Assembly (NCBI GenBank): GCA_035510735.1
Contig: DATKGN010000008.1
Coordinates: 76,466 to 140,465 of the forward strand
DNA length: 64,000 nt
Direction of reading: 5' to 3'
Source of the DNA: Patescibacteria group bacterium
GTDB taxonomy: Bacteria; Patescibacteriota; Microgenomatia; UBA10105; UBA927
Notes under the pieces: generated by a model
The model's database searches: none
What the model was told of the DNA's origin: nothing
The model's input: only the letters and a program-made list of their open reading frames with translations
Program-made: the position numbers and the translations under genes
Shown: one piece after another, positions 1,215 through 27,213 of the stretch
Numbering within the stretch: position 1 is the stretch's first letter
Layout of the letters: every line of letters begins with the position of its first letter

Positions 1215-2597
1215 ATGATAACTATGTCACGGATTCGCTATTCCACTATAGTATCAGGCATTATTTTTATCATTATTCTTACGGCTGTATTCCTCCTACG
1301 GTATTTCTACCTTAGAAACGCGGGAGAACTCCTGACTCCCCCAGATAGCACCGGCTATTACGAGCGCGTAGAGGAATTTACGACATCGCCGCTTACCGCT
1401 TTTTTCTCGGAATACCGGACGCCCGGCTACCCGCTCTTCATCCTTTCAATTTTCAAACTCACAGGGACTGCGATTGCTCCTGTCTGGTCTCCCGCATTTT
1501 TCCGTGGTATGGAGGCCGTCGTCTTTACGCAAACACTCATAGGCATAGCCGGTCTCATATTGCTTACCTATATTTGTCTTCGGGTCGGCATCCCAAAATC
1601 GGTAAGCTATGTTTTTATACTATTTACCGGCGCAAATATTCTCCTTTTTACCTGGGAACGGTCGATTCTGGGCGAAAGTCTGTCAACAACAGTGCTTATC
1701 CTATACGTGTATCTCTTTCTGTTGCTCCTTGATAAAGCGACAATCCGTAAATTGTTTTTATTTACACTCATCTCGATCGTATTGTTTTTAGTGCGGCCGA
1801 TATTTATCGTACTCCCGTTTGCAGTCCTTCCGATTGTTGGAATGTATCATCGAAGTAAAACGGTGACAAACAAAGTTCTGCTTTTCATGGCCATATGGCT
1901 TCTCATTCCGCTCATCTATATGAATGCCAATACGATCCTTCACGGATACTCAGGTGTCAACCACATCAACGATATCAATGTGCTTGGCCGTATTTTAGCC
2001 CACGATTTACCGATAAATTCCGGAAAAGACGTTCCGTATTTCTACAACAATGTTAATAATTTTAGAACAAATCACGGTGACACCTCAATGCCGTACATTT
2101 TCCTCAATTACATAGATCCTACAATTTACGGAAACACGCTTCGCCTGAACGAACTGCAAAAATTTGACGGACAAATAATGCTGGGAGCTCCCCTGCCGTT
2201 TTTAGAAAGCGTTATTGCAGACGTCCCGACGATGCTCCTTCACACGGACTTTACCGATATCACCGGTATTCAAACAATACAGAGTCCGCGCATCCGTTCC
2301 TTTTATCAGATGTTGTTTACTTTTTACCACTCAATAAAACCGCTCACCTTTTTATTTCTACCGTTATTTCTGTTCATCTTTTTTAAACTGATGCACACAA
2401 AGAAAAATATATGGCTTGCGTTTCTGACGTGTTTAGGAAGTATTACGCTGTATCAGATTGTCGTCGCGCTCGTGTTTGGCTATGCGGAATTCGACCGCCT
2501 CATCATTCCTATAGAGCCGCTTCTCTATTTATTTTGTTTTGCAGGGATTTGGGAATTTATTCAGACGGTAAAACAAAGTATCTACCGCACCCGATAA
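1215..2597 (+). CDS. Polytopic membrane protein, putative GT-C glycosyltransferase (PMT_2/ArnT-like), subfamily A
   Basis: 460 aa with at least 10 hydrophobic segments. The first loop has DSTGYYERVEEF...RTPGYPLFIL, resembling the PMT_2 loop motif. Its soluble segment (INDINVLGRILAHDLPINSGKDVP) is paralogous to ORF 14074..15387 (ISDVNLWGKLLVLHLPIDQVPDIQ). Confidence 0.65.
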   Translation: MITMSRIRYSTIVSGIIFIIILTAVFLLRYFYLRNAGELLTPPDSTGYYERVEEFTTSPLTAFFSEYRTPGYPLFILSIFKLTGTAIAPVWSPAFFRGMEAVVFTQTLIGIAGLILLTYICLRVGIPKSVSYVFILFTGANILLFTWERSILGESLSTTVLILYVYLFLLLLDKATIRKLFLFTLISIVLFLVRPIFIVLPFAVLPIVGMYHRSKTVTNKVLLFMAIWLLIPLIYMNANTILHGYSGVNHINDINVLGRILAHDLPINSGKDVPYFYNNVNNFRTNHGDTSMPYIFLNYIDPTIYGNTLRLNELQKFDGQIMLGAPLPFLESVIADVPTMLLHTDFTDITGIQTIQSPRIRSFYQMLFTFYHSIKPLTFLFLPLFLFIFFKLMHTKKNIWLAFLTCLGSITLYQIVVALVFGYAEFDRLIIPIEPLLYLFCFAGIWEFIQTVKQSIYRTR

Positions 2598-4237
2598 AGT
2601 ATTGTGTCCCCTTCTTGATATACAGGTACGAGAAATTGATACGGAAGCACCGTAAACGCCGGATTCATGTGTTCCGTCGGAGAATAAAGAACAAAACGAA
2701 TAGTATTTGTTTTGATAAACTGCGCAGCTTCACTTTGCGTCATATTGCCGCTGTAAAAAGATTCCATACGGTTTCCCACATCCCAAAACCCGGGCGATTC
2801 CATAAGCCGGTGCCACCAACTCGTATAGGTTACGTTACCCGAAAACGCAGGGATGAGGTTGCCGGTAAAGTAACCGCTCAGGATAACATCATCTTCCTTG
2901 GAATGTTTTGATAACCAGGATAAGGTATCAATAACCGTTTTCTTTGGATACCCAAACGCAAACGCATCGGCATTACAAAAACAAACGAACAGACGATTAT
3001 AGCTTACCTGATATGAGTAATACCCTGACAGCAGTACAATTGCCAATAATCCTCCGGCAATAAGCGACGTCGAAATTGTATGAACGTACTTCTGAATTAT
3101 CCGTGCGATATCAAATAAACCCACTGTCGCAAGCATGCCGAATCCCACGTAATACGGCAAAAGGAAATATCTGATCCTGTTGATGTGCAGTAATACCGGC
3201 AAAATATATTCGCCAACAGGGTGCATGATTATCCAGGGAAGGATGAGAAGAAATATCGTTTTCCCGTCTTTCCAAACCCGATAGGTGGCAATAATGGAAA
3301 AGACATACGTCGCGCCCATCGTGAGGATGTATTGCATAACGGTGAGATGAAAAGGATTTAGTTCCTCCGTATGGGAAAACGAATACGGGCCCCAAATCGT
3401 AGTCATGACGTAGCGGACATACAGAATTGGTAAACCCGAAATGAGTGCATAGGAAAATAAAATTTGCGCCTGCGTGATAAGAACTTTTTTGATCTGACGA
3501 TTTTTGCGGAGTCGGAAAGCAATGAGACAAAAATACAAAGGCAAGGAACTGACGATTAGGACCATCCCAGGGGCATTAATAAGCGACGCAAGAGCTCCGG
3601 TTGCGACCGACCAGATAAAATAACGGGTGCGGGTCGGGGCATCGAGTACTCGCGATAGGAAATAAAGCGATGCTACGGTGAGTGCGCCGCCCAAAAGATA
3701 ATGAATTCCTGCGGTTGTTAACCGTTGGGTCACAAGCGCATCCATCACGCTCGTCGCTACAAAATCCTTGAGAGGAGAAATCGTGATGCTCGTCCCGAAT
3801 AGAACAAGAATATAAGCAACAACGCGCTCGAACGGACGTTGCCATACATACGCAATAACACGGTAAATAATATAAAAAAACAGGAGTGATGTAATGAACC
3901 GCGCAATGTGAAATGCAATGAGCGGGTCGATAAGAAGGAGTCGCGCGAACATTCCGATCGTCGTATATTCCATTTTTACGAATGACCAGCTCGCTGGAAG
4001 GGTTGAAGAAATATTAAGGAACGACTCAAGGTGGCCGTTATACCCCTGACGGATAAGACCTAAATTCCATGTTGTATCAATCGGATATTCATCGGCCATA
4101 CCATAATAAAACAAGTCATGCGGCGCCCGCTGGTAATTAACGTAAATCGGGTAATATGAAATAATAAGGAGAACGAGGGCGGCAATAACGCACCAGAATA
4201 TATTACTGCGGAACCACGAATATATCTTTTTTGTCAT
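2582..4237 (-). CDS. Polytopic membrane protein, putative GT-C glycosyltransferase, subfamily B (shared C-terminal extracytoplasmic module)
   Basis: 551 aa, multi-TM. The C-terminal DVILSGYFTGNLIPAFSGN...FYSGNMTQSEAAQFIKTNTIRFVLY module is shared with ORFs 9782, 17892 and 19896. Confidence 0.7.
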   Translation of the reverse strand: MTKKIYSWFRSNIFWCVIAALVLLIISYYPIYVNYQRAPHDLFYYGMADEYPIDTTWNLGLIRQGYNGHLESFLNISSTLPASWSFVKMEYTTIGMFARLLLIDPLIAFHIARFITSLLFFYIIYRVIAYVWQRPFERVVAYILVLFGTSITISPLKDFVATSVMDALVTQRLTTAGIHYLLGGALTVASLYFLSRVLDAPTRTRYFIWSVATGALASLINAPGMVLIVSSLPLYFCLIAFRLRKNRQIKKVLITQAQILFSYALISGLPILYVRYVMTTIWGPYSFSHTEELNPFHLTVMQYILTMGATYVFSIIATYRVWKDGKTIFLLILPWIIMHPVGEYILPVLLHINRIRYFLLPYYVGFGMLATVGLFDIARIIQKYVHTISTSLIAGGLLAIVLLSGYYSYQVSYNRLFVCFCNADAFAFGYPKKTVIDTLSWLSKHSKEDDVILSGYFTGNLIPAFSGNVTYTSWWHRLMESPGFWDVGNRMESFYSGNMTQSEAAQFIKTNTIRFVLYSPTEHMNPAFTVLPYQFLVPVYQEGDTILYRVR

Positions 4238-4256: not shown

Positions 4257-4997
4257 TTACGACTTTAACCCCAATGGCAAATAGACGAGGGGCCGGAATA
4301 TGCTCCACCAACTTTTCAAAGAAACCATTTTTGTATTTAATTTCATCTCCTTATGATATTTTTTTGTTACAGCAATCTCCCCCACTTTATAGTGCAATTT
4401 GATCACTTTGTAAAAAAAATACGGCTCAAGCTCATATCGATTGAGCCATGTTTGTTTAAGCCTGATTCGCTTATCAGAAATAAGTGAGCTTTTAAACGCA
4501 CGAAGCCCGTTGGTCGCGTCGGTTGTAGGAAATCCTGATACGAGTGCAAAAAGTACCGAATATATTCTCGTAAGAAACGATCTACTAAAGGGGTGTTGGA
4601 TTCTTTTTCCGCCTTTCATCCAGCGTGAGCCGTGGATATACGAATAACCGCCGTCCGTGAGTTTTGCGACGAGTGGTTTGATATCATTTGGGTCGTCCTG
4701 ATCATCTCCTGCCATGAGAACAGTAATATCATAATTGTGTGTGTTTGCCCAGAAAAATCCAGTTCTGATGGCAGCTCCTGCTCCTGAATTAACCGGGTGG
4801 CTGATGACGGTAGCGCCTGCTTTTTTCGCCTCAACGGCTGTTGCATCAACCGACCCGTCGTCAACGACGATAACCGCATCAACCAAGCCATAACAAATCT
4901 TCTTCAATCGCTCTACCGATGGCCCTATTTTCCCTGCTTCATTAAGACATGGCATAATGACGGCAACAGTATTTTTTTTATACATACGATGACGCAA
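4257..4997 (-). CDS. Glycosyltransferase family 2 (polyprenyl-phosphate sugar synthase / DPM1-like)
   Basis: 246 aa. VAVIMPCLNEAGKIG and VVDDGSVDAT (DxD region), typical of GT2. Confidence 0.85.
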   Translation of the reverse strand: MRHRMYKKNTVAVIMPCLNEAGKIGPSVERLKKICYGLVDAVIVVDDGSVDATAVEAKKAGATVISHPVNSGAGAAIRTGFFWANTHNYDITVLMAGDDQDDPNDIKPLVAKLTDGGYSYIHGSRWMKGGKRIQHPFSRSFLTRIYSVLFALVSGFPTTDATNGLRAFKSSLISDKRIRLKQTWLNRYELEPYFFYKVIKLHYKVGEIAVTKKYHKEMKLNTKMVSLKSWWSIFRPLVYLPLGLKS

Positions 4998-5997
4998 ATT
5001 TACGGAAATCTACTTCCTTTTTTTCTCTCAGTGACTGCGATATCGCTTCAAGAAGAAGAACATTCGTAAACCCGTCGGACACCGAGGTAATCGGTTCCTG
5101 CTCTTTATTAATACATGCGACAAAATGCTTAATCTCGGTCGCCAAAGGATCAATCGGCTCAATTCTCGGGATAAACACATTCCCTAAGCGGAATGCGGCT
5201 TTATACGGATCGGTTTCCGACGGATACCGAATAATGGTATTATAAATTTTCACAGGTTCAATCTGATTGGTATCTTCAAAAACCGCCATCCTTTTCCGTC
5301 CCAAGAGAGTGAGCATCCGGATTTTCATAGGATAAAGCCACGCAACGTTAATGGTCACGAGCATGGAGCTTCCGTATTCAAGCATAATGGACGCGATGTC
5401 TTCCTGCGGGTGTCTCATATACCGTTTGGCTTTTGCAAAAATTGAGGTGGGCATTTTATTTCCGAGAAGGTACGTAATCATGGAAAGGTCATGCGGGGCA
5501 AAATCCCAGATGATATTGACGTCATCGCGGATCGGCCCGTAACTTTGCCGCTTACATTCAATGTGAAAGAGTTTTCCGAAATATCGTTTATCAACTTTCG
5601 CTTTCAGCCATCGGACCGCCTGATTATAAAGAAACGTATGGCCTACCAAAACGCATGCCTTATACTTTTTCACCAACTGTTTAAGCTCTACAGCCTGGAC
5701 AAGTGAACTCGTGAGCGGTTTTTCGATAAGGAGAGCAGTGCCGGTCGGAATGATCTTTTTAGCGAGCGCGAAGTGCGTTGTTGCGGGCGTAGCAATAATG
5801 ATGCCATCGAGTTTTTGTTTAATCAGCTCATCGACGGAGGCGGTAGTGTGAACGTGCGGATATCTTTTCTTAACATCTGATAACATCTCGGGCCTGAGTT
5901 CGCACACCCAGGAAAGCTCCGCATCAACCGTGGTATCCAAATATTTAATATAATTTCTTCCCCAGTATCCCCATCCGATAATGCCGAGTTTAATCAT
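4978..5997 (-). CDS. Gfo/Idh/MocA-family NAD-dependent sugar-nucleotide dehydrogenase (WbpB/WlbA-like)
   Basis: 339 aa. N-terminal Rossmann MIKLGIIGWGYWGRNYI and EKPL motif (LLIEKPLTSS). Paralog of ORF 6820..7842. Confidence 0.85.
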   Translation of the reverse strand: MIKLGIIGWGYWGRNYIKYLDTTVDAELSWVCELRPEMLSDVKKRYPHVHTTASVDELIKQKLDGIIIATPATTHFALAKKIIPTGTALLIEKPLTSSLVQAVELKQLVKKYKACVLVGHTFLYNQAVRWLKAKVDKRYFGKLFHIECKRQSYGPIRDDVNIIWDFAPHDLSMITYLLGNKMPTSIFAKAKRYMRHPQEDIASIMLEYGSSMLVTINVAWLYPMKIRMLTLLGRKRMAVFEDTNQIEPVKIYNTIIRYPSETDPYKAAFRLGNVFIPRIEPIDPLATEIKHFVACINKEQEPITSVSDGFTNVLLLEAISQSLREKKEVDFRKFASSYV

Positions 5998-6053: not shown

Positions 6054-6755
6054 ATGCCCATGCGTCTTTCATCACTATCAATACTCATTCCTGCATACAA
6101 TGTTGAGCATACAATTAACAAAGTGGTTACAGATGCCCATGCGGTTGGAAAACAAGTAACGGACAATCTTGAGATCATCGTAACTGACGACGCCAGCGGT
6201 GATGCAACGGGTAAGCAGCTCCTTCACCTGAAACAAACGGTGCCGCATCTCCGGATTATTACGCATAAAATTAATCGGGGATACGGAAAAACCATTAAAG
6301 AACTATACCAATTAGGCCGAAGGGAATGGTTATTTTCGCTTCCGGGTGATGACCAATTTGATGCAAAAGAACTCATGGCGTTACTGCCCGAAACAAAACA
6401 TGCTGACATGATTTTGGGTTGGCGGGAAAAACGTCAGGACTCACTACGACGCCTCATCCAATCCAAAACGTACAACGCAATTCTCAATATTCTCTTCCAT
6501 CTCAACGTCCATGATGTGAATACCATTCGACTCATGAAACGATCTGTTGTTCATTCAATCCCCCTCAATTCTGATACCGCTTTCGTCGATGCAGAACTTG
6601 CGATACGATTACAGAAAAAGAAATTAAAGATTATTGAAATTCCGATTCATCATAAAATGAGAAAAGATACAGGCGCAACCGGCGGAAAATTTATTATAAC
6701 TATCTATCCGACAATCATTGATATTATCCGGATGAAATTCAGCGGGAATACGTAA
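6054..6755 (+). CDS. Glycosyltransferase family 2
   Basis: 233 aa. LSILIPAYNVEHTI and IVTDDASGDAT (DxD). Confidence 0.8.
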   Translation: MPMRLSSLSILIPAYNVEHTINKVVTDAHAVGKQVTDNLEIIVTDDASGDATGKQLLHLKQTVPHLRIITHKINRGYGKTIKELYQLGRREWLFSLPGDDQFDAKELMALLPETKHADMILGWREKRQDSLRRLIQSKTYNAILNILFHLNVHDVNTIRLMKRSVVHSIPLNSDTAFVDAELAIRLQKKKLKIIEIPIHHKMRKDTGATGGKFIITIYPTIIDIIRMKFSGNT

Positions 6756-6819: not shown

Positions 6820-7842
6820 ATGACAACGCATATTGCAGTTATTGGGTACGGCTACTGGGGACCAAACATCGTCCGCAATTTTTCGAAGGTCGACGATACT
6901 GAAGTTACATGGGTCTGCGACATGAACCCCAAGGTTGTAGCCGAAATTCCCCATCTCTATCCGACAATTCATGTAACGAACGATGTCACAGAAATGTTAA
7001 ACGATGACAATGTTGATGCCGTGGTCATCGCCACTCCGACAGCCAGTCACTACGCGCTTGCAAAACTTGCGCTTGCTGCAGGGAAACATGTGCTCGTTGA
7101 AAAACCGATGACGCAAACGGCAAAAGAAGCCGACAAATTAGTACGCTTCGCGAAAAAGGCAAAAAAAGTTCTCATGGTCGATCACACATTTATCTATACG
7201 CCGGCAATCCGGAAAATTAAATCAATTATCGATAAAGGCGAACTCGGTGAGATCTACTATGTCGACAGCGTAAGGACTAATTTGGGTATACTGCAAAAAG
7301 ACAGTAATGTAATTTTTGATCTGGCAACTCATGATTTTTCCATCATGGATTATTTGTTTCATCAAATGCCACTGACCATTTCGGCAACCGGAATTTCCCA
7401 TAAACAATTAAATCAGGAAACAGTCGCCCATATCGCGGCAATGTATAAACATAATCTATTCCTCCACTGTCATGTCAATTGGCTTTCACCGGAAAAAATC
7501 CGGAGAATGATATTCGTCGGAACGAAAAAGATGCTGACGTATGATGACATAGAACCTTCGGAAAAAATTAAAATCTACGACAAAGGAGTGTCGTTTACCA
7601 AAGACCCGAAGCAGTCGTATCAACTCCGGATCGGTTACCGGAGCGGCGACATCACCTCTCCCCATATCCCTATCGAAGAAGGACTGTATGGTATGGCGAA
7701 AGAATTTGTAAAATCAATACAGTCTAAAAAGCATCCGATTACCGACGGCGAAATGGGTGTTCGGGTTATCCGTTGTATAACAAAAGCAACGGAATCATTG
7801 AGGTCAGGAGGAAAACCCGTTTCTCTGTCATTCCGGGCTTGA
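6820..7842 (+). CDS. Gfo/Idh/MocA-family NAD-dependent oxidoreductase (second paralog)
   Basis: 340 aa. IAVIGYGYWGPNIV Rossmann motif and VLVEKPMTQT. Aligns along its length with ORF 4978..5997. Confidence 0.85.
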   Translation: MTTHIAVIGYGYWGPNIVRNFSKVDDTEVTWVCDMNPKVVAEIPHLYPTIHVTNDVTEMLNDDNVDAVVIATPTASHYALAKLALAAGKHVLVEKPMTQTAKEADKLVRFAKKAKKVLMVDHTFIYTPAIRKIKSIIDKGELGEIYYVDSVRTNLGILQKDSNVIFDLATHDFSIMDYLFHQMPLTISATGISHKQLNQETVAHIAAMYKHNLFLHCHVNWLSPEKIRRMIFVGTKKMLTYDDIEPSEKIKIYDKGVSFTKDPKQSYQLRIGYRSGDITSPHIPIEEGLYGMAKEFVKSIQSKKHPITDGEMGVRVIRCITKATESLRSGGKPVSLSFRA

Positions 7843-7859
7843 CCCGGAATCCATTATTT

Positions 7860-8150
7860 ATGATCAAACACTACTTTGTCTACATGTTAGCCAGCAAAGC
7901 AAATGGGACTATTTATATCGGTGTAACTAATAACCTTCCAAAACGAATTACTGAACACAAGCACGATTTCGCTGACGGTTTTTCGAAAAAATATCGTGTC
8001 CATAGACTTGTCTACTATGAAATGTATACTGATATTAAAGAGGCAATTCATAGAGAAAAACAATTAAAGTGGTGGAAAAGAGATTGGAAAATAAAACTGA
8101 TTATTGAAAAAAATCCTGGGTGGAATGATTTATATAAAACAATTTTCTAA
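7860..8150 (+). CDS. GIY-YIG nuclease-family small protein (UPF0213-like)
   Basis: Internal Met of the 7773 ORF (MIKHYFVYMLASKANGTIYIGVTNNLPKRITEHK) gives a 96-aa protein with the GIY..YIG..R..EH motif. The upstream part of the track ORF overlaps the preceding gene in another frame, so the start was moved. Confidence 0.7.
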   Translation: MIKHYFVYMLASKANGTIYIGVTNNLPKRITEHKHDFADGFSKKYRVHRLVYYEMYTDIKEAIHREKQLKWWKRDWKIKLIIEKNPGWNDLYKTIF

Positions 8151-8165
8151 ACAATAAGACTGGAT

Positions 8166-8183
8166 CCCGGCTCAGAGGCCGGG
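8166..8183 (+). terminator. GC-rich hairpin cccggc-tcagag-gccggg downstream of the GIY-YIG gene
   Basis: Perfect 6-bp GC stem, 6-nt loop, 16 nt after the stop at 8150. Not followed by a T-tract, so an intrinsic terminator is uncertain. Confidence 0.3.
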
Positions 8184-8199
8184 ATGACAAGAAAAGACT

Positions 8200-8670
8200 A
8201 TGATCAAAAAAGATGTAAAACTCGGAAAGAATGTGGTCATTCATCATCCTGAACAGGTTAACCTCTACGGCTGTACCATCGGCGATGGTACACGGATCGG
8301 AGCGTTTGTCGAAATCCGAAACGGCGTGACAATCGGCAAAAACTGTAGACTTCAGGCTTTTATTTTTATACCTGAGGGAATCACGATTGGTGACGGCGTT
8401 TTTATCGGTCCGCATGTCTGTTTTACCAACGATAAACATCCGAAAGCGGTCAATAAAGACGGTTCACCGCTCACTGCCGACGACTGGAAACTTGAAAAAA
8501 CGATCGTCAAAGACCGCGCAGCTATCGGAGCCGGAGCGGTCATTCTACCGGGATTAACCATCGGCCAGGGTGCGGTTGTGGGTGCCGGGTCAGTCGTGAC
8601 CAAAGACGTACCGGACGGCACCACCGTCGTAGGGAATCCCGCAAGAATTCATAAAAAACAAATAATATGA
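8200..8670 (+). CDS. Left-handed beta-helix (hexapeptide-repeat) sugar N-acetyltransferase (WbpD/PglD-like)
   Basis: 156 aa. Repeated [LIV]G-x4 hexapeptides (IGDGTRIGAFVEI, IGDGVFIGPHV, IGAGAVILPGLTIGQGAVVGAGSVV). Confidence 0.85.
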   Translation: MIKKDVKLGKNVVIHHPEQVNLYGCTIGDGTRIGAFVEIRNGVTIGKNCRLQAFIFIPEGITIGDGVFIGPHVCFTNDKHPKAVNKDGSPLTADDWKLEKTIVKDRAAIGAGAVILPGLTIGQGAVVGAGSVVTKDVPDGTTVVGNPARIHKKQII

Positions 8671-16117: not shown

Positions 16118-16349
16118 ATTTTGTGCGTCCTTCGATCTAAAGATCTCAGGATCTTGGACATCCGTAACGCTTAAGTCTTTTGCGGACTAAATATAATTTA
16201 CCTCCCGCGCGGGGAGCCAATGAAATTTAGTCCGGATTCATTTGTGAGCGAGGGTAATTTGCGAAAACAGAAAACAGTGATTTCGCGAACGAACTGAAGT
16301 CCGGATCTAAATCTCATTGCGACCTCAAGCGCGTTAACCATATACGTTT
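16118..16349 (+). repeat. Copy 2 of the ~230-nt intergenic repeat element (forward orientation)
   Basis: See copy 1. It lies in the divergent spacer between the GT2 gene (start 16115) and the GT-C gene (start 16389). It contains the 10-bp GC palindrome cccgcgcggg and the hairpin aagatc-tcag-gatctt. Confidence 0.85.
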
Positions 16350-19895: not shown

Positions 19896-21500
19896 ATGAA
19901 TCTTATCGTCACCGGAATTATTATCCTTACCACGTTCTTGAACATCAGCAGTTATTTTGTACTCGCGACACGGACACCGCAGTTTACGGTATTTTTAGGA
20001 ACCGTCCACTACCCGATGGATTATCTCGACTACCTTGCATTTATCACGCAGGGGAAAAACCACTGGTTCTTAAGTTATCACGTTTTTACCGGTGAAACCA
20101 CGCGGCTCGAACTGTTGAATTGGATATACACATTTGGCGGACACATCGGGTCTTTTTTTCATCTCACTGCACCGATCACCTATCAAGTGCTTGTTGTAGT
20201 GGCGAGCGCCGCATATCTGTATATCGCCTACCGGCTCGCATCACTTCTGTTTCCGACAAACAAAACCACCAGGCTTATCGCCTATATTCTCTTTTTGTTA
20301 AGCAATGAGTTTCCTAAAATTTATGCAGATCACGGAATTTGGATATTCTCTTACTTTTACCCCTGGAATAACATTGGAGAACCGCTTGTCCGGCTGACCA
20401 ACGTACCGCATCATCTGTTCATCCAGTTCGGCATTATGGCAGCGTTCGTCGCTGGGATTACCTACTGGCTCAAGTTAGGAAAAAAGCATCTTATCATCCT
20501 CGCATTCTTAGGATGTTTCGTCGCAAGTATGCAGCCCCTCCAGTGGGCTCTGGTCACCGGGGTTTTGGGGGTAAGCGGTTTGTTTGCCTGGTGGCAAACA
20601 AAAACAGAGGAACGGAGAACTACACTCGTCAAACAGGGATTATTTGCATTTCTTCCGTCCGTTATCTTTTTCCTTTCCGGATTACCCGTTGCCATATATC
20701 TCAAACATCTCTATGTACTTGCGCCCTATGATTACACGCTCATATGGGAAGCAACACAACAGGTGCGGTTAACTATCCTCCAATTTATTATTCTCAACGG
20801 TCCTCTCATGGTACTTGCCATTCTTGCGATCCCGTTCGTCGTTAAGAAAATAACAATACGGGAATTTCCGATTATTTTTTACTCCGTCTTCGTCATCGCC
20901 GTCTTTTTTTCACCGATTCCTGATTATGCAAAAATATTAAACCTCAGGTTTCTCTCCGTCATCCCGACGTTCGCATGCGCGTATCTGGCGGCCCGCCTCA
21001 TCTGGCTTGCCGCCGCAAAAGTTGATCCGAAACGAAAAAACATGCTTGCCTGGTTTTTAAGCATTGTGGCACTATCAATTACCCTTCCGGTCACCGCGAA
21101 CCAGTTTTATAGCCGGACATTAACCGTAGGACCGACGGATGTGAATGCGTACCTGCCCCTTGGAGCATATGAGACATTCAATGTTGCACAGCGGGTCGTT
21201 GGCCCCACAGAAACAGCACTGGTTGAACCATTGTTTTCCGATACATTCGCCGGTTTAACCGGAAAACATGTATTTGTTTCCAATGAATTTGCAACAATTG
21301 ATTACACAAGAAAAATACAGGAAGCCACGGATTTTTATTACAATAAACAGTTATCGGATTCTTATAAAATCGCATGGCTTCACAAAAACCATATTTCATA
21401 TATTTTTACTTATGCGTGGGTGCCGATTTATCTCCCTAATCTTAGCATCGTGTATCAGAATCAATATGCTATATTCTATAAAGTAACAAACGCGAAATGA
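19896..21500 (+). CDS. Polytopic membrane protein, putative GT-C glycosyltransferase, subfamily B
   Basis: 534 aa, multi-TM. HYPMDYLDYLAF loop. C-terminal FYYNKQLSDSYKIAWLHKNHISYIFT module homologous to the other subfamily-B members. Confidence 0.7.
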   Translation: MNLIVTGIIILTTFLNISSYFVLATRTPQFTVFLGTVHYPMDYLDYLAFITQGKNHWFLSYHVFTGETTRLELLNWIYTFGGHIGSFFHLTAPITYQVLVVVASAAYLYIAYRLASLLFPTNKTTRLIAYILFLLSNEFPKIYADHGIWIFSYFYPWNNIGEPLVRLTNVPHHLFIQFGIMAAFVAGITYWLKLGKKHLIILAFLGCFVASMQPLQWALVTGVLGVSGLFAWWQTKTEERRTTLVKQGLFAFLPSVIFFLSGLPVAIYLKHLYVLAPYDYTLIWEATQQVRLTILQFIILNGPLMVLAILAIPFVVKKITIREFPIIFYSVFVIAVFFSPIPDYAKILNLRFLSVIPTFACAYLAARLIWLAAAKVDPKRKNMLAWFLSIVALSITLPVTANQFYSRTLTVGPTDVNAYLPLGAYETFNVAQRVVGPTETALVEPLFSDTFAGLTGKHVFVSNEFATIDYTRKIQEATDFYYNKQLSDSYKIAWLHKNHISYIFTYAWVPIYLPNLSIVYQNQYAIFYKVTNAK

Positions 21501-21531: not shown

Positions 21532-22299
21532 ATGACGAAAATTATGGATACGGGTGAAAGTGAACAAATTCCGCCGATAAAAAATACCGCGATTATCGCA
21601 ATAGGCGTAAGTGTGGCCGTCATTGCCCTTATCATCCTCCAACATAACCTGGCGTTTCAGGGAGTCGGAACCATCGTCCTTCCGGCCGGCGGCACATATT
21701 TGGGTCCGACGGATACAACAACCCCCGCGCCTGCGATTACGACACCCGCACCGGTTGCGCCAACGGTAACCGTATCAACAACTCCGACCGCACCGACTAA
21801 AAACGGCACATACACGACCGCACAGGGTAAATTTGCCGTAACGAAAGATGCCGTATGGGTCACAGTGAAAGGAAATAAATATCCGTATTCATTTAAGAAG
21901 CCGTCAGCGTTAAACCTCGTCACGTTTCCTAATGACCAGTTCGATATCTATGCTATTTCCTGGAACGGACAGCCGCCGGATCAGAATGTACTCATCGGAG
22001 TCGACAATCTCAATAGAACTGATGCATTGAAACAATATATCGATGTATCAAAACGGACATATGTCGAGAACTGGTGGAAACAATTCGGACTGAAAGGAAT
22101 CGGATCGATAACAGAATTTACCAACAGCCACGGCCTCAAAGGCTACCGCGCAAAATTCCTCAATAGTGCGGGCCAGACTCCTAATGATGATGTCTTTTTT
22201 GAAACACCAAATCCCATCTACGTCATCCATATCGCAAGTGGCGTACTTGATTCTTCCGTTTTTGATCCGCTCATTGATAGTGTCGCGTGGGGAAAATAA
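21532..22299 (+). CDS. Membrane-anchored protein with a Thr/Pro-rich linker and a C-terminal globular domain
   Basis: 255 aa. One N-terminal TM (AIIAIGVSVAVIALIIL), then TDTTTPAPAITTPAPVAPTVTVSTTPTAPT, then an aromatic-rich domain. Confidence 0.65.
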   Translation: MTKIMDTGESEQIPPIKNTAIIAIGVSVAVIALIILQHNLAFQGVGTIVLPAGGTYLGPTDTTTPAPAITTPAPVAPTVTVSTTPTAPTKNGTYTTAQGKFAVTKDAVWVTVKGNKYPYSFKKPSALNLVTFPNDQFDIYAISWNGQPPDQNVLIGVDNLNRTDALKQYIDVSKRTYVENWWKQFGLKGIGSITEFTNSHGLKGYRAKFLNSAGQTPNDDVFFETPNPIYVIHIASGVLDSSVFDPLIDSVAWGK

Positions 22300-22313
22300 T
22301 CCGCTCACTCACT

Positions 22314-24218
22314 ATGAAAAAAGTGTTGACATTTGTCACGAATCCGACTAATTTTCAATTCCTGCTCGGTGTTGCGCTTTTACTCCGGCTTGTTCTCATC
22401 CCGAATCCCGGATTTGAGGCAGACGTGGCTTTCTGGAAATCCTGGGGATTGGCGGTACGCGATTTCGGCATCGTCAAAGGGCTCCCGCTCACGAATTTTA
22501 ATTATCCTTCACCCTTTGCCTACGTTTTGGCGCTTATGGCCGATGTGTACAGCTTTTTTGCCAATCCGCATAATTATAATGAATACTGGAACAACGCCAA
22601 CGTCCTTTTTCTCGCCATCTGCAAAACGCCGTCGATTCTCGCAGACTTCGGCATATTTGCCGTCATTCTCTGGATCGGTAAAAATGCCAAACGCATAGGA
22701 TTCCCCCAGCTCCCCATGCCGTTTTACACGACCCTCGCATTTATCTATCTCTTAAGCCCGCTTGCCATGCTTGACGGCGCGCTTTGGGGCCAGGTGGACA
22801 GCCTCGGCGTCGTTATTTTCCTTATCGCAAACTGCCTCGTCCTCCGGAAAAAACCGTTCCTCGCCGGCATCGTCTATATGATCGCGATGATGACAAAACT
22901 CCAGAATATGATTTACGGCCCGGTATTTTTCCTGTTTATCTGGCAGTACTTGGGATTTGAAGGATTCATGCAGGCGGTCGGCGGAGCGGCGCTCACCTTT
23001 TTCTCACTCAATATTGAATTCGTTTTAAATAGGGATATGTCGCGGGTCGCCGGTGACTTGACCGGCAACTACGATTACTTCCCGTGGATGTCCTTAAACG
23101 CCTATAACGTGTGGTGGATCGTATCGGGCGCACATGGTATGCAGATGTCGGATAAAAATATGGCCATAGGCATCGTAAACGCCAAGACGGTCGGACTTTA
23201 TATGTTTGCCTCAACGTATCTTCTCTCCGTTCTCACGATGCTCAAGGGGAAATTTTTGCCGTCCAACAATAGAGCAATTCAACAATTTAACAATGAAGGC
23301 ACCCTGAATAGTCCGATTGTCTCCCGCGAGCTCCTATTTAGATATTTGAGCGGATTAATAATCGCTGCCTCCGGCTTTTTTCTTTTTCAGACGGAATCCC
23401 ACGACCGGTACGCGTTTCCGGTAATCGTGTTTTTACTGCTCTGGGGGCCATTATGGATCACAAGAAATAAGAAAGAAATAATCGAACGGGAAATCACCCC
23501 CTTATTTACGTCATTTATCGTGGGATATATTCTCATCACGCTTCTCTATTTTTACAATCTTCACAACGCATTTATTCAGAACTACCCTCATAACGGCATT
23601 TCGTTTCTGACGGGACTCAATATTCCCACCCTAACGATTCTTGCTTCCCTTGCACAGATCGGGGTATTTGGCTATTTTCTCTATATATTACGGCGCTATA
23701 TCACAACACCGATTTTTGCATCGTGCGTGGGTATTTGTATCCTTCTTATTATTGCCAAGGATATGCCGCTCATCACGAAAAAACCGGTCTATATCACAAA
23801 ACTTACACCGATCTCAGCGACGGCAGGCTATGGAAGCCGCCAGGTTGATATGCCGGTCATGGCAAGCTTCGGATTTAGCAAATGGGGCTTCTTATCAACC
23901 CAATACGCATTTTACCATCATGGTATCGGCACCCACGCGCCTGCACGCGAGGTGTATGATATCAACCGGAATTTTAAAACACTAACGACGGATGTCGGCA
24001 TCGACACAAACGGCGGGCCTCAGGGAAGCGTCGAGTTTGACGTCTACGGCGACGGAAAACAGCTTTATTCGTCAGGTCTCGTCACGCGGTATCAATTCCC
24101 GAGACACGCAAATATCAATGTCACCGGCGTCAAGACACTCGAACTCATTGTGACAGACGGCGGCAACGGCAATGTCGATGATCACGCGGATTGGCTCAAT
24201 ACACAATTGATACCATAA
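22314..24218 (+). CDS. GT-C-like polytopic membrane protein fused to a C-terminal NPCBM-type carbohydrate-binding domain
   Basis: N-terminal EADVAFWKSWGLAV loop after TM1 and at least 10 TM segments. The C-terminal ~150 aa (YAFYHHGIGTHAPAREVYDI...VGIDTNGGPQGSVEFDVYGDGKQLYSSGLV...LELIVTDGGNGNVDDHADWLNTQL) match the NPCBM/NEW2 signature. Start moved to Met at 22314, because the track start at 22287 overlaps the previous gene. Confidence 0.7.
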   Translation: MKKVLTFVTNPTNFQFLLGVALLLRLVLIPNPGFEADVAFWKSWGLAVRDFGIVKGLPLTNFNYPSPFAYVLALMADVYSFFANPHNYNEYWNNANVLFLAICKTPSILADFGIFAVILWIGKNAKRIGFPQLPMPFYTTLAFIYLLSPLAMLDGALWGQVDSLGVVIFLIANCLVLRKKPFLAGIVYMIAMMTKLQNMIYGPVFFLFIWQYLGFEGFMQAVGGAALTFFSLNIEFVLNRDMSRVAGDLTGNYDYFPWMSLNAYNVWWIVSGAHGMQMSDKNMAIGIVNAKTVGLYMFASTYLLSVLTMLKGKFLPSNNRAIQQFNNEGTLNSPIVSRELLFRYLSGLIIAASGFFLFQTESHDRYAFPVIVFLLLWGPLWITRNKKEIIEREITPLFTSFIVGYILITLLYFYNLHNAFIQNYPHNGISFLTGLNIPTLTILASLAQIGVFGYFLYILRRYITTPIFASCVGICILLIIAKDMPLITKKPVYITKLTPISATAGYGSRQVDMPVMASFGFSKWGFLSTQYAFYHHGIGTHAPAREVYDINRNFKTLTTDVGIDTNGGPQGSVEFDVYGDGKQLYSSGLVTRYQFPRHANINVTGVKTLELIVTDGGNGNVDDHADWLNTQLIP

Positions 24219-24498: not shown

Positions 24499-27213
24499 GT
24501 GTTGCGAATCTTAAATGAGATGAAAAAACTGACGAAAGAAAAAATAGTTGCACTCATACTCCTCCTCTTTGCCGTGGGATTTAATCTATGGTTGTATAAA
24601 TTGGAGCCGACGGCGACGATTGACCCGAATGACAATGCATTCCAATTCGGTTTGGTTGATAGGACAAACACCATATGGGATTTTGCAATCAAAAAGTGTT
24701 CATCTTCGCTCGGCGGGATTCTCACCTTCCCCATTTGTCAATTCAGCTATCTCGGCGACCACTGGGTCCACAACTGGGCGGATGGATTCAACTTGCCATT
24801 CTACTACTCCCACGTGCCCCAGATCCTTATCGTGGCCTCATGGCGGTTTATCGCCCTTTTTGCGCCTCAGTTGAGCCTATTTACCTATTATCATATAGTT
24901 ATCTACTTATTATTATGTCTCTTCCCCATTTCCGTCTTTATCGCTCTCCGGGTAATGGGCCTCTCGTGGATGACGGCAGGCGTGGGAGCTCTGTTTGCCA
25001 CAAATCTCTCAACCGACGGCCTTTATGGCCTGGACCCGTCATCTTTCCTCTGGCGGGGCTACGGCCTCTCAAGTCAGCTGTTTGCCATGATCTGGCTCCC
25101 GCAGGCTATCGCCTACAGCTACCGGTTCTTCGCCGCTCAGGAGGGTGAGGAAGTCGGGAAACGATTTTTGAGAGAACTGGCGTCCGGACTCAAATATCTT
25201 TGGGTAAAAATGAACAGAGAAGGACGCCATTTAGCGAGCGGGGGAAACTCCAACCCTGTGCAAGAAGCCCAGCGAGCGACTCGAAAAAATTCGTTTCACG
25301 AATTCCTGATACCCGCGATCTTCTATATTACAGCGACAACCGCGGGACACTTGGGAATCGGCATGATCGCCATGCTCTCCGCCGGATTTCTCGGAATCGC
25401 TATTCCCATTATGAAAGTTTTCCGTCAGCAGACGTTCCGTGACGTCGTCGGATCGCTCAGAGAACAAATTATACGCGTCATTATCGTCTGCGGCGTCGCT
25501 ATATTTATTCTCGGCTATTGGATCATCCCGATCTTCATCTACGGCAACTATCACAACATCTCATTCTGGGACCCTGTGTGGAAGTTCAACTCCTATGGAA
25601 CCAAGGAAGTCATGATCCGTCTGTTTAACGGCGACCTCTTTGATTTTGGGCGGCTGCCGATTCTCACCTATCTCTCTATACTTGGAATAATAGTAAGTCT
25701 TAGCGCGGCGAGTTGGAAATTTTTTGAAGATCGCTTCTCGAGCTTAGCAAAATCAGGCAAAACAAAAAGTGAGCCTGTTGCGAGTAGCGGATCGAGAAAA
25801 ATTACCAACTCGCAAAGCCCCAACGAACCGACCTCAGCACGAACTGAGGATTATTCCCCTCTCGCCTTCCTTTTTATTTTCTGGTTATTATTCTACTTCG
25901 GGAGAACCACCTGGGGAGGACTCATCGACCTTATCCCGGGCATGAAAGATTTCCATTTATCCCGGTTTATCGTCGGTCTTCATGCCGCTGGTATGCTCCT
26001 TGCCCCCATCGGGTTTGTGTGGCTTGCCGAATTCGGATCACGAATCACGAATGACGGATTACGGAAACTTACGACGCTTCGTATTAATTATTCGTTTATT
26101 CGCTTATTCGCTTATTTAATTATTGGATTATTGTTAATCCCCCCCGTTTTTCAATGGACCATCACGTACAACACGTTGAATAATGACCTTATCGTGAGAG
26201 CAAACACTAACCACGCGAAAGTGGCGGCAGACGAGCAGAAATTATTTGCAAAACTCAATTCGCTTGAGCCCGCACGCGTGTTTGCCGGACGGGGCGGGAG
26301 CTTCGGCAAGAACTTCCGCGTTGCCGAGACCCCATACTTCATGGATCTGTCCACGTACGGCATTCCTACGACCCTGTGGCTGCCTGAAACATGGTCTATG
26401 AATTCGGACACCGAACAGTTTTTCTCCGAAGATCAGGCAAAAGACTACGATCTTTACAATATGAAATACGTGGCTGCCCCACCGGATCAGACACCGCAGC
26501 CATTTTGGACTCTCATCGATCAGGCGGCGACATGGAAACTCTATAGCGTCCCGACATCAGGTTACTTCACCGTGGGTATAAGGCCTGCCATCGTATCCAT
26601 CAATAAAATCAACTTTTACACCGTTGTCCACCTTTGGGTCCAGTCAGACGCGCACAAAAACGGGCTTTTCCCCGAGTTGACCTTTGATGCATCCTATCCC
26701 AAAACAACCGGTCTCCCGAATTTCAAAATGACCGATGAAGTGACCTATGTAACGCCCGATAAAAAAACACACAATCTGTTTGCCGAACCTCCAATCTACT
26801 TGCCTCCCGGTTTTATGTCGGTCGAACAATTTAACAATACAACAATAAAACAATACAACAATCTGAAGTTGATTGGCCCCGAGAAAAATGATACGAATAT
26901 GATTTTTTCGACGAAGGTAGATGTAGGCACAAATTGCCAACAGTGTCTCGTGATCCTCAAACAAACGTATCATCCATCCTGGCGCGCGTGGGTCGACGGA
27001 AAGCCGGTTAAGCCCATTATCGTCTTCCCCTTCTATATCGGTGTGCAGGTTGGTCAGCCAGGAGTCCATGAAGTAACGCTCGCCTATGAACCGTCACTCA
27101 TGAAAATGGCACTCCTCTATCTTGCGATCATCGCAATCGTTCTCTGGGTGATTGTGATAATATTACGAAGAAAAGATCAGAAATCCCTAACGTCTACGGT
27201 GAAACACGGGTAA
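24499..27213 (+). CDS. Large polytopic membrane protein (YfhO/GT-C-like size class) with low-complexity inserts
   Basis: 904 aa with at least 12 TM segments and a C-terminal TM anchor (ALLYLAIIAIVLWVIVIIL). Hydrophilic inserts (…NREGRHLASGGNSNPVQEAQRATRK…, …SGKTKSEPVASSGSRKITNSQSPNEPTSARTEDY…) separate TM blocks. The start may be Met at 24520. Confidence 0.7.
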   Translation: MLRILNEMKKLTKEKIVALILLLFAVGFNLWLYKLEPTATIDPNDNAFQFGLVDRTNTIWDFAIKKCSSSLGGILTFPICQFSYLGDHWVHNWADGFNLPFYYSHVPQILIVASWRFIALFAPQLSLFTYYHIVIYLLLCLFPISVFIALRVMGLSWMTAGVGALFATNLSTDGLYGLDPSSFLWRGYGLSSQLFAMIWLPQAIAYSYRFFAAQEGEEVGKRFLRELASGLKYLWVKMNREGRHLASGGNSNPVQEAQRATRKNSFHEFLIPAIFYITATTAGHLGIGMIAMLSAGFLGIAIPIMKVFRQQTFRDVVGSLREQIIRVIIVCGVAIFILGYWIIPIFIYGNYHNISFWDPVWKFNSYGTKEVMIRLFNGDLFDFGRLPILTYLSILGIIVSLSAASWKFFEDRFSSLAKSGKTKSEPVASSGSRKITNSQSPNEPTSARTEDYSPLAFLFIFWLLFYFGRTTWGGLIDLIPGMKDFHLSRFIVGLHAAGMLLAPIGFVWLAEFGSRITNDGLRKLTTLRINYSFIRLFAYLIIGLLLIPPVFQWTITYNTLNNDLIVRANTNHAKVAADEQKLFAKLNSLEPARVFAGRGGSFGKNFRVAETPYFMDLSTYGIPTTLWLPETWSMNSDTEQFFSEDQAKDYDLYNMKYVAAPPDQTPQPFWTLIDQAATWKLYSVPTSGYFTVGIRPAIVSINKINFYTVVHLWVQSDAHKNGLFPELTFDASYPKTTGLPNFKMTDEVTYVTPDKKTHNLFAEPPIYLPPGFMSVEQFNNTTIKQYNNLKLIGPEKNDTNMIFSTKVDVGTNCQQCLVILKQTYHPSWRAWVDGKPVKPIIVFPFYIGVQVGQPGVHEVTLAYEPSLMKMALLYLAIIAIVLWVIVIILRRKDQKSLTSTVKHG

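Follow-up and report, generated by a model that had tools for sequence, protein, structure and literature searches.

Three-component glycosylation systems combine a polyprenyl-phosphate sugar synthase of the GT-A type, a flippase and a glycosyltransferase of the C type (GT-C); described examples are CsbB/GtcA/YfhO, GtrB/GtrA/GtrC, GacI/GacJ/GacK/GacL and ArnC/ArnE-F/ArnT (PMC8035078). Here we describe a region of approximately 27 kb, encoding nine GT-C proteins among approximately 23 genes, which is most likely a cell-envelope glycosylation island that builds or decorates a cell-surface glycan. It lies in a stretch of 64,000 nucleotides (nt) of contig DATKGN010000008.1 (assembly GCA_035510735.1), hereafter the window, and the host genome belongs to the Candidatus Gottesmanbacteria lineage (Microgenomates, candidate phyla radiation (CPR)/Patescibacteria). 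Open reading frames (ORFs) are labelled by their start coordinate in the window, so that o1215 is the ORF starting at position 1215. Group A comprises o1215 and o14074, group B comprises o2582, o9782, o17892 and o19896, the TP protein is encoded at 21532..22299, and m181 at 13521..14066.

The island resembles the three-component systems in that its GT2 genes, which resemble the ArnC/Dol-P-Man synthase (DPMS)/GtrB class, adjoin GT-C genes, and in the acidic motif in the first loop of its GT-C proteins. It has GT-C proteins of PMT_2 and of YfhO-like type, like the Firmicute systems in PMC8035078, and in one cassette a GT2 and a GT-C are coupled to genes for aminosugar tailoring, an arrangement shared with the Arn pathway. 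Its short GT2s are devoid of transmembrane (TM) helices, like the cytoplasmic GacI-type GT-A enzymes that bind a separate membrane protein (PMC8035078). However, the three-component systems have one GT-C each, whereas the island has nine from five families, one of which lacks a Pfam model; the window encodes no GtrA or Wzx, and the host is a member of the CPR.

The GT-C lines of mycobacteria and corynebacteria (PimE, MptA-C (GT87), EmbA-C, AftA-D, and PpgS with Rv3779), which build phosphatidylinositol mannosides, lipomannan, lipoarabinomannan and arabinogalactan, have many paralogs that use polyprenyl-phosphate sugars to assemble one envelope glycoconjugate stepwise, as is proposed for the island. 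PpgS likewise resembles the short, TM-free GT2 type. Shared with these lines are a GT87-like member, AftA as the protein with the best TM-score for group B, and PpgS as the best NCBIfam match of the GT2 encoded at 4257. A carbohydrate-binding module on a GT-C, present here in o22287, is described there for EmbC (PMC3044687) and for AftD (PMC8035078). The differences are that sequence similarity is marginal and the GT87 match sub-threshold, that the genes are clustered rather than dispersed, that phylum and envelope are different, and that the island has no genes for phosphatidylinositol-mannoside initiation or decaprenyl-phospho-arabinose synthesis.

Two further groups of systems deserve comparison. 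The streptococcal GtrB/PgtC2 and Pgf GT-A/GT-C systems carry out extracytoplasmic glycosylation of Ser/Thr-rich disordered regions of membrane-anchored proteins (bioRxiv 10.1101/2024.05.05.592596), and mycobacterial PMT favours proline-rich sites (PMC12331936). The island likewise encodes a membrane-anchored protein with a predicted extracytoplasmic Pro/Thr-rich stalk among its GT2 and GT-C genes. However, the streptococcal targets are the housekeeping proteins PrsA, PBP1a, LytR and PknB, whereas the candidate here sits inside the cluster and its stalk length is unconserved; unlike the actinobacterial PMT system, no window protein has a PMT, MIR or WW-like domain. The GT66 enzymes STT3, AglB and PglB give the best Foldseek E-values for both of the families that we modelled (groups A and B), and share with them a polytopic N-terminal domain and a first-loop acidic residue and, with group B, also a C-terminal extracytoplasmic domain. 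In contrast to GT66, there is no WWDxG motif and no Pfam STT3 match, TM-scores are at most 0.5, and the window has no genes for the assembly of a lipid-linked oligosaccharide.

No account of GT-C islands in Gottesmanbacteria, Patescibacteria or the CPR was found in open-access papers and bioRxiv, which is weak evidence given that coverage. What was found for other CPR lineages is limited to passing mentions of several genes annotated as 'dolichol-phosphate mannosyltransferase' and of one GT87, in genomes of Peregrinibacteria and Saccharibacteria. What sets the island apart from the three-component systems is the density and diversity of GT-C proteins, the Pfam-less family, the obligatory NPCBM fusion, the orphan stalked core protein and the CPR host. 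Since lipid-linked monosaccharide donors and GT-C enzymes are already established, the island extends a known theme and opens none.

Nine GT-C-type glycosyltransferases from five families

The preliminary description of this region listed nine polytopic membrane proteins of GT-C type. All nine ORFs are present, encoding proteins of 446-904 amino acids (aa) with 7-10 TM segments each by the crude Kyte-Doolittle count; the position given there as 22314 is the first ATG inside ORF 22287..24218, for which a GTG start lies upstream. All-vs-all BLASTP recovers the two paralog subfamilies proposed there, A (E=2e-20) and B (E from 4e-13 to 1e-3), and leaves o16389, o22287 and o24499 as singletons. The proteins fall into five GT-C families: PMT_2, the divergent PMT_2-like group A, the Pfam-orphan group B, a GT87/ALG6-like protein with NPCBM, and a divergent YfhO. 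We conclude that all nine are confirmed, with at least family-level support, as predicted GT-C-type glycosyltransferases. Chance falls far short of explaining nine such genes among approximately 23 in a genome of this type.

The features of the region are as follows.

1..176, minus strand: fourth GT2 glycosyltransferase, N-terminus (Pfam Glycos_transf_2, E=2.5e-9)
235..1122, minus: NAD-dependent sugar epimerase/reductase-like protein of the short-chain dehydrogenase/reductase (SDR) type (Pfam Epimerase 1.6e-19, RmlD_sub_bind)
1215..2597, plus: GT-C, group A, compact, 460 aa, with D44 and RTPGYP (AlphaFold2 model, Foldseek, PMT_2 matches in the family)
2582..4237, minus: GT-C, group B, final gene of a minus-strand unit (paralogy with o17892, E=9e-11)
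4257..4997, minus: soluble GT2, polyprenyl-phosphate sugar synthase-like (NCBIfam PpgS 2.3e-25; PDB DPMS 1e-9, ArnC 9e-7)
4978..5997, minus: GFO/IDH/MocA oxidoreductase, UDP-GlcNAc 3-dehydrogenase-like (Pfam and NCBIfam 1.5e-45)
6054..6755, plus: soluble GT2, heading the plus-strand cassette that ends with o9782 (PDB ArnC 9e-9, GtrB; NCBIfam ArnC/AglJ)
6820..7842, plus: GFO/IDH/MocA oxidoreductase, UDP-GlcNAc 3-dehydrogenase-like (NCBIfam 3.8e-50, under the equivalog cut-off)
7773..8150, plus: small GIY-YIG nuclease gene, true start probably near 7860 (Pfam GIY-YIG 1.5e-15)
8200..8670, plus: left-handed beta-helix sugar N-acetyltransferase-like protein, NeuD/PglB/VioB type (Pfam Hexapep 1e-23; NCBIfam 1.8e-23)
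8667..9776, plus: DegT/DnrJ/EryC1-type sugar aminotransferase (Pfam 4e-114)
9782..11428, plus: GT-C, group B paralog from a clade without the first-loop Asp (paralogy, alignment)
11433..12152, minus: AlaX-like gene for a free-standing alanyl-tRNA editing domain (8.7e-11 to the C-terminal region of tRNA-synt_2c)
12211..13209, plus: SDR nucleotide-sugar 4,6-dehydratase/epimerase-like protein (Pfam Epimerase 2e-55; NCBIfam LegB-like 1.4e-56)
13276..13496, plus: inverted-repeat arm, a copy of a leader element of approximately 225 nt (repeat search, blastn)
13521..14066, minus: m181, 181-aa membrane protein with approximately three TM segments and a soluble C-terminal part (no family match)
14074..15414, minus: GT-C, group A (24% identity to o1215, E=2e-20; invariant residues)
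15384..16115, minus: soluble GT2, polyprenyl-phosphate sugar synthase-like (PDB ArnC 1.2e-13, DPMS 4e-7)
16120..16340, minus: 5' leader, approximately 225 nt, of the operon headed by the preceding GT2; second inverted-repeat arm (palindromic core 16183-16234)
16389..17891, plus: GT-C, PMT_2 family (ArnT/PMT-like), with D42-x-D44-E45 in the first loop (Pfam PMT_2 27.9 bits)
17892..19820, minus: GT-C, group B, conserved core lineage, with FELVHNFPTD57YN (AlphaFold2 model and Foldseek)
19896..21500, plus: GT-C, group B (E=4e-13 to o17892)
21532..22299, plus: TP protein, type II membrane protein of an orphan family (recurs in 60/80 loci)
22287..24218, plus: GT-C, GT87/ALG6-like membrane domain with C-terminal NPCBM (NPCBM 5e-34)
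24499..27213, plus: GT-C, divergent YfhO with a large C-terminal extracytoplasmic region (25/50 orthologs match YfhO)
27950..63928, minus: giant ORF, 11,992 aa, 36 kb (Pfam PP2C_2, SecA_DEAD)

The fourth GT2 is truncated by the left window edge, so the island extends further than these coordinates. By gene order, the minus strand carries the oxidoreductase at 4978, the GT2 at 4257 and o2582 as one module, and the GT2 at 15384, o14074 and m181 as another that is divergent from o16389. The plus-strand module runs from the GT2 at 6054 through the oxidoreductase at 6820, the GIY-YIG gene, the acetyltransferase and the aminotransferase to o9782. In the right-hand block, o17892 is followed by o19896, the TP gene, o22287 and o24499.

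When the nine sequences were scanned with Pfam, o16389 alone scored above threshold (PMT_2, PF13231, 27.9 bits against a gathering threshold of 26.1); o22287 reached GT87 below threshold, and the other seven had no match. The NCBIfam scan added nothing to this. Since single-sequence scans place one family only, each family was examined through its relatives, member by member. No profile or fold search assigned any of the proteins to a transporter or permease family, and the GT-C fold is supported by structure search for both of the proteins that were modelled, o17892 and o1215. The more specific proposal that the enzymes are of PMT/ArnT type holds for o16389 and, through 29 of 91 members, for group A, and is not supported by sequence for group B, o22287 and o24499; a protein O-mannosyltransferase (GT39) type finds no support, with a PMT, MIR or PMT_4TMC match at E<=1 in none of the nine.

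A first-loop acidic residue is present in eight of the nine proteins, o9782 being the exception. Lys and Arg outnumber Asp and Glu ahead of TM1 in 7/9, consistent with a cytoplasmic N-terminus; this charge test is uninformative for o14074, o9782 and o19896. The donors of the GT-C proteins would be polyprenyl-phosphate sugars.

Group B is a GT-C family without a Pfam model

The pairwise BLASTP matches within group B include o19896 with o17892 (4e-13) and o2582 with o17892 (9e-11). A profile search with this group collected 266 proteins, none of which carries a Pfam domain, and a member-by-member scan of 83 found no match to any GT-C Pfam family. Few of the homologs are named; Candidatus Gottesmanbacteria or Patescibacteria are the sources of those that are.

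An AlphaFold2 model of o17892 built from the group B alignment has a mean predicted local distance difference test (pLDDT) score of 89.6 and a predicted TM-score (pTM) of 0.90. When the model was compared with the PDB using Foldseek, the top 27 matches were all GT-C enzymes (STT3, AglB, PglB, DPY19, AftA, ArnT and AftB), with E-values from 4e-9 to 2e-2 and TM-scores mostly of 0.4-0.54; below them the probability falls to 0.25 or less, the matches being transporters. The best TM-scores are those to AftA (0.54/0.58). The shared C-terminal module noted in the preliminary description is visible in the alignment as [FY][FY]..L[TS]......I.[YF][IV]F, and in the model it forms a helix-strand element of the extracytoplasmic alpha/beta domain (residues approximately 520-642). 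Residues of approximately 420-460 in o17892 form a lineage-specific, low-complexity insertion rich in Gly, Pro and Arg, with pLDDT below 50, which is missing from most orthologs and coincides with raised local G+C (0.478 in 18001-20000).

Motifs were checked in 175 family ORFs. The first-loop motif FELVHNFPTD57YN is near-invariant, with D57 kept in approximately 165 of the 175, across more than 20 sub-lineages, and the o2582 clade also keeps the first-loop Asp. The o9782 clade (six members) is the only multi-member clade without it, the window protein reading PPIGYGYYY there, and this lineage may be a catalytically divergent or inactive paralog. With its annotated GTG start, o9782 has an acid-rich N-terminus without Lys or Arg, so the real start may be a Met 20 codons downstream. 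WWDxG, the hallmark of GT66, occurs in none of the 175 group B sequences and in none of the nine window proteins, which argues that group B is a GT-C family separate from GT66. Together with the model, these results point to group B as a GT-C family for which Pfam has no model.

Group A and the three singletons

o1215 and o14074 are 24% identical end to end (blastp E=2e-20), and both contain the D..YY and RTPxYP elements that had been noted as a shared loop motif. At E<=1e-30 an exhaustive HMMER search with group A returned 322 cluster representatives, a number that rises to 6,295 at E<=1e-3. PMT_2 is matched by 29 of the 91 members aligned (best 1.2e-8), o1215 and o14074 themselves being unmatched, and PF02366 (PMT) is touched by just three of the 91, all distant relatives. 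Residues D44, Y48, Y72, Q106 and R428 are invariant in the 91 sequences. The AlphaFold2 model of o1215 (pLDDT 95.5, pTM 0.93) has as its high-probability Foldseek matches the GT-C enzymes STT3, DPY19, AglB, ArnT, PglB, Pmt4 and ALG9; transporters are interleaved further down the list with probabilities below 0.2. On the basis of these profiles, group A is best treated as a divergent sister group of PMT_2 rather than as formal members.

For o16389, the ArnT/PMT loop motif recognised in the preliminary description is present as DSDELHH after TM1, its D-x-D-E being invariant in 40/40 orthologs. o22287 scores 17.1 bits against GT87 (PF09594; threshold 25) and has a C-terminal NPCBM (5e-34). Among 51 orthologs from related loci, NPCBM is found in all 51 and GT87 in 20 (E<=0.01), with Alg6_Alg8 matched by 12 instead. 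D46 is invariant in this family, and hhalign aligns o22287 with group A (E=5e-5) such that the first-loop Asp residues coincide. When the family profile was searched against solved structures it retrieved NPCBM-type modules only and no GT87 structure. o22287 is thus predicted to be a GT-C of PimE/ALG6 type, with a GT87 score below the membership threshold.

The relatives of o24499 point to YfhO (PF09586), which 25 of 50 orthologs (45-67% identity) match, and nothing else, with a best E-value of 7.1e-9. PF09586 is precomputed on 53 of the 120 homologs listed, one source names a homolog 'YfhO family protein', and D42-P-N-D45-N after TM1 is invariant. We regard o24499 as a probable divergent YfhO member. 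Among solved structures, no GT-C enzyme was retrieved by the sequence profile of o16389, of the o24499 family or of either paralog group, and hhalign probabilities for group B with group A, YfhO with group A and YfhO with group B were below 2%.

The island encodes probable donor-side enzymes

The preliminary description saw in this region a glycosylation island that follows a lipid-linked-donor logic. This is borne out by three GT2s that resemble ArnC, DPMS and GtrB and by a set of sugar-nucleotide tailoring genes. The GT2s are proteins of 233-246 aa with no TM segment, the C-terminal TM helices of GtrB and CsbB being missing. Their closest solved homologs are ArnC, Pyrococcus DPMS and GtrB, and their best NCBIfam matches are PpgS, AglJ, ArnC and Dol-P-hexose transferase; PgfS is among the weaker matches of all three. 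They thus resemble the polyprenyl-phosphate sugar synthase class. Each adjoins a GT-C gene: the GT2 at 4257 lies by o2582, that at 6054 is in the cassette with o9782, and that at 15384 lies by o14074 and is divergent from o16389. In 11 related loci the last of these and the PMT_2 gene are neighbours.

The tailoring set consists of two SDR epimerase/dehydratases, two UDP-GlcNAc-3-dehydrogenase-like oxidoreductases, a DegT aminotransferase and a hexapeptide acetyltransferase. m181 has no Pfam or NCBIfam match, and it co-occurs with o14074 and the GT2 at 15384 in three related loci (L004, L006 and L013). It might conceivably be a flippase or a membrane partner of the GT2.

A conserved core and variable cassettes

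Related loci were collected by scanning species-representative genomes, which gave 80 loci. Nearly all of the informative labels are Candidatus Gottesmanbacteria, with a few Woesebacteria, Roizmanbacteria and Microgenomates. Many related records of metagenome-assembled genomes (MAGs) are labelled 'uncultured Gammaproteobacteria', and their proteins are nearest to named Candidatus Gottesmanbacteria MAGs; since the two conflict, these labels appear unreliable and are probably placeholders or errors.

The TP protein is encoded in 60 of the 80 loci, GT87/NPCBM in 55, the YfhO-like protein in 51, PMT_2 in 40 and a group B ORF with o19896 as its best match in 35; individual GT2s occur in 18-38, aminosugar genes in 13-22 and group A in 4-5. 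The gap between GT87/NPCBM and YfhO is at most 300 nt in 47 of 51 loci. The TP gene directly adjoins GT87/NPCBM in 21/51; the remaining loci mostly have one or two extra GT-C genes between the two. The 43 related loci of at least 20 kb have a median of five GT-C genes and a maximum of eight, which makes GT-C density a trait of the lineage.

As the preliminary description had suggested, we compared island content between relatives. The closest (GCA_964385705.1, here L001) has 77-86% nucleotide identity to the window and differs from it by two blocks. The block at approximately 4990-5967 (the oxidoreductase gene at 4978) and a 3.6-kb block at approximately 7820-11446 (the GIY-YIG, acetyltransferase and aminotransferase genes and o9782) are absent from L001. 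More distant relatives hold parts of the latter cassette, so that gain in the window and loss in L001 both fit. The left border of this 3.6-kb stretch coincides exactly with the GIY-YIG gene, which may be a selfish or mobile element tied to gain or loss of the cassette. The island thus consists of a conserved core and variable cassettes, the lineage-wide core being o17892, often o19896, the TP protein, GT87-NPCBM and YfhO.

The TP protein: a possible accessory subunit or acceptor

The TP protein is the sole protein of the region with a stretch of at least 60% Ser/Thr/Pro, in a scan that included the 11,992-aa ORF. The Thr/Pro linker reported for 21532..22299 is a 34-residue stretch, GPTDTTTPAPAITTPAPVAPTVTVSTTPTAPTKN. 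The layout of the protein is constant: an N-terminal TM helix, the nearly invariant juxtamembrane motif VLPxGxTYLGP, the stalk (residues 58-91 here) and a conserved C-terminal domain of approximately 150 aa. In essentially all of the 54 orthologs analysed the stalk is rich in Pro, Thr, Ser and Ala and begins 'YLGP[ST]P[ST]'. Its sequence is unconserved, and its length ranges from 14 to 59 residues (median 29), the long form being found in the window and its nearest relatives; in many orthologs it shrinks to 14-20 residues, and in several it has only 3-5 Ser/Thr. In orthologs the TM helix is directly preceded by Lys or Arg, which would orient the stalk and the C-terminal domain outward. The start of the next gene is at 22287 (GTG) or 22314 (ATG), and the end of the TP gene at 22299; this overlap or near-abutment suggests that the two may be co-translated. 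The family (59 members) has no Pfam or PDB match; a DUF5849 match, seen in one of 59 orthologs and located on the linker, was rejected as a low-complexity artefact. Selection visibly preserves the motif and a predicted globular domain, and the compositional feature of the stalk is real and family-wide.

Two roles for this protein were weighed. The first, which we regard as possible and put forward tentatively, is that of an accessory subunit, whose C-terminal domain binds or presents an acceptor polymer or scaffolds the core GT-C enzymes and whose stalk is a spacer. What the island builds or decorates would in that case be a glycopolymer anchored to a lipid or to the wall, comparable to the products of the mycobacterial GT-C lines for lipomannan and arabinogalactan or to teichoic acids and wall polysaccharides as decorated in Gram-positive bacteria. 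The conservation of synteny with three or four GT-C genes, the possible co-translation with o22287, and the conservation of the C-terminal domain and VLPxGxTYLGP but not of the stalk would all suit such a role. According to a speculation by Rismondo et al., recognition of the acceptor polymer by small GT-C enzymes may depend on another protein (PMC8035078); the NPCBM of o22287 parallels the lectin-like carbohydrate-binding domain of EmbC (PMC3044687), and AftA is the enzyme with the best TM-scores for group B. However, Pfam and the PDB gave no match that would liken the TP domain to a carbohydrate-binding or scaffold domain, no fusion of TP with a GT-C was observed, the window has no gene for an initiating transferase, polymerase or ligase, and the CPR papers found in the open-access literature and bioRxiv document no glycopolymer of this kind.

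The second role, proposed in the preliminary description and in our judgement rather unlikely, is that of main acceptor: PMT-like GT-C enzymes would O-glycosylate the TP stalk, with different paralogs adding different sugars. This would explain why the only Ser/Thr/Pro-rich stretch of the region lies on a predicted outward-facing stalk that persists in essentially all orthologs analysed, encoded by a gene that is present in most of the related loci and abuts GT87-NPCBM in many of them. There is precedent in the action of GtrB/PgtC2 and Pgf on Ser/Thr-rich disordered regions (bioRxiv 10.1101/2024.05.05.592596) and in the selection of proline-rich sites by MtPMT (PMC12331936). Nevertheless, an unconserved stalk that may be as short as 14 residues, with few Ser/Thr in several orthologs, is not what an acceptor leads one to expect, and the parts that are best conserved, the juxtamembrane motif and the C-terminal domain, suit a working partner better than a passive substrate. 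Moreover, the proteins that bacterial glycosylation systems modify are as a rule encoded away from the enzymes, and the synteny is explained just as well by an accessory role. The acceptors tabulated for Gram-positive systems are teichoic acids and wall polysaccharides (PMC8035078). Finally, the NPCBM on o22287 implies an acceptor that already bears sugar; it points to a glycan-bearing acceptor instead of nine protein glycosyltransferases that are each specific to an acceptor.

Local rearrangements and neighbouring genes

An inverted repeat of approximately 225 nt (13276-13496 and 16120-16340) flanks the cassette of m181, o14074 and the GT2 at 15384. The arms are 89-91% complementary by repeat search and 86% over 223 nt by blastn. 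The arm at 16120-16340 is the 5' leader of the GT2 gene, whose first codons persist in decayed form in the other arm. The repeat has a palindromic core, CGGACTAAAT...CCCGCGCGGG, at 16183-16234. The RNA fold of the leader is modestly better than that of shuffled controls (z=-2.5), and Rfam finds no known RNA in the region, leader included. In L001 the two halves of the element (12028-12188 and 14977-15108) flank the same cassette in direct orientation and overlap at the palindromic core, which suggests inversion or insertion at the core. Near the split leader, L001 has a perfect 55-nt direct repeat (15138..15192 and 15293..15347) that duplicates the 3' end of the epimerase gene, a further sign of local rearrangement. 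The AlaX-like gene in the middle of the island has the same position in the closest relative and no obvious functional tie to glycosylation.

Adjoining the island is the 11,992-aa ORF, which continues in an identical public contig (L084). It has approximately six TM-like segments, and Pfam matches in it are confined to PP2C_2 (aa 1685-1877) and, at approximately aa 6576-7060, a divergent SecA_DEAD/P-loop_SecA pair. It resembles the 'giant genes' reported mainly from Omnitrophota, a class marked by Ser/Thr-phosphatase, TM and divergent SecA_DEAD domains, in a study that does not mention Gottesmanbacteria (bioRxiv 10.1101/2023.11.21.568195). It was dropped as a candidate glycosylation acceptor, having no Ser/Thr/Pro-rich stretch and appearing mostly non-membrane.

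Discussion

We consider it likely that the island encodes multi-component transmembrane glycosylation modules that proceed by tailoring, GT2 loading, flipping and GT-C transfer. This model builds on the folds and families of the nine proteins, their first-loop acidic residues, the class of the GT2s, synteny, and the variation seen against the closest relative. Cytoplasmic tailoring enzymes would modify nucleotide sugars, and together could yield a 3-amino or 2,3-diacetamido sugar. Three or four soluble GT2s would load single sugars onto polyprenyl phosphate, a flippase would turn the lipid-linked sugars across the membrane, and the nine GT-C transferases, with their first-loop acidic residues, would pass them to extracytoplasmic acceptors. 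From these genes we infer the donors, the order of action, the flippase step and an acceptor that may be a protein stalk, a lipid anchor or a wall polymer. The NPCBM that o22287 and its orthologs universally carry, and the large extracytoplasmic part of the YfhO-like protein, suggest that at least the core acts on a target that already bears sugar, and such a target argues for enzymes in series on one glycoconjugate, as in the mycobacterial GT-C pathways for lipomannan, lipoarabinomannan and arabinogalactan or in the decoration of Gram-positive wall polymers, rather than for nine independent, protein-specific enzymes. The core enzymes would thus probably make one glycan-bearing surface conjugate, to which variable GT2/GT-C cassettes would add strain-specific decorations.

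Several results weigh against this model. On the transferase side, the sub-threshold GT87 match of o22287 is indirect support, o24499 has no Pfam match of its own at E<=1, the assignment of o2582 and o19896 hangs on their paralogy with the modelled o17892, and loss of the first-loop Asp in the o9782 clade places an active transferase role for o9782 in doubt. On the donor side, the GT2 scores are all under the NCBIfam equivalog cut-offs, which limits their assignment to the family level. No GtrA or Wzx flippase was found by Pfam among window ORFs of at least 150 aa, and the gaps contain no plausible small membrane ORF; the flippase may be encoded elsewhere in the genome. There is also no established acceptor, and no gene for a polymer-initiating phosphoglycosyltransferase, a polymerase or a ligase, in the window.

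A bolder version, in which we have little confidence, is that the core (group B, the TP protein, the GT87/ALG6-like protein with NPCBM and the divergent YfhO) is a protein-primed assembly line for a surface glycan. Here the TP stalk would be the primer on which several GT-C enzymes in turn extend a long glycan outside the cell, giving a bacterial proteoglycan- or mucin-like anchor; group B would be a new GT-C family with a new acceptor specificity, and the swappable GT2/GT-C cassettes, bordered by repeats and a GIY-YIG gene, a means by which these episymbiotic cells diversify the glycan shown to hosts and phages.

It is highly improbable that group B proteins are oligosaccharyltransferases related to STT3, AglB and PglB, which transfer an oligosaccharide en bloc to proteins. 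These three enzymes head the Foldseek list (E from 4e-9 to 2e-5) and group B has a C-terminal extracytoplasmic alpha/beta domain, but the TM-scores are only 0.43-0.50, with AftA, DPY19 and ArnT about equal, there is no Pfam STT3 match, and the GT2s are of the polyprenyl-monophosphate type with neither an initiating phosphoglycosyltransferase nor Wzx beside them. We rejected this identity on the absence of WWDxG from all 175 sequences. That the nine proteins are transporters, permeases or inactive relics clustered by accident is scarcely credible, and a transporter or permease identity is effectively refuted by Foldseek and the family Pfam matches: neither Pfam nor NCBIfam gives a match for seven of the nine on their own sequence and a group B homolog is called 'MFS family permease' in one source, yet fold searches favour GT-C at high probability with transporters at 0.25 or less, the first-loop acidic residues are invariant across hundreds of sequences, family members match PMT_2, GT87, ALG6/8 and YfhO, and the genes consistently adjoin GT2 and sugar-nucleotide genes.

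The model of multi-component glycosylation modules provides objects that can be tested: a Pfam-less GT-C family with a candidate catalytic Asp, a GT-C with a CBM51-like module, and an orphan stalked membrane protein that would be an acceptor or an accessory. CPR/Patescibacteria, with genomes of approximately 1 Mb, are regarded as living attached to other cells, and their surface chemistry is little known. At least 27 kb is given here to nine GT-C proteins and their donor pathways, and a core of four to five genes is kept group-wide. That investment and the kept core suggest that a complex surface glycoconjugate is central to the biology of this lineage.

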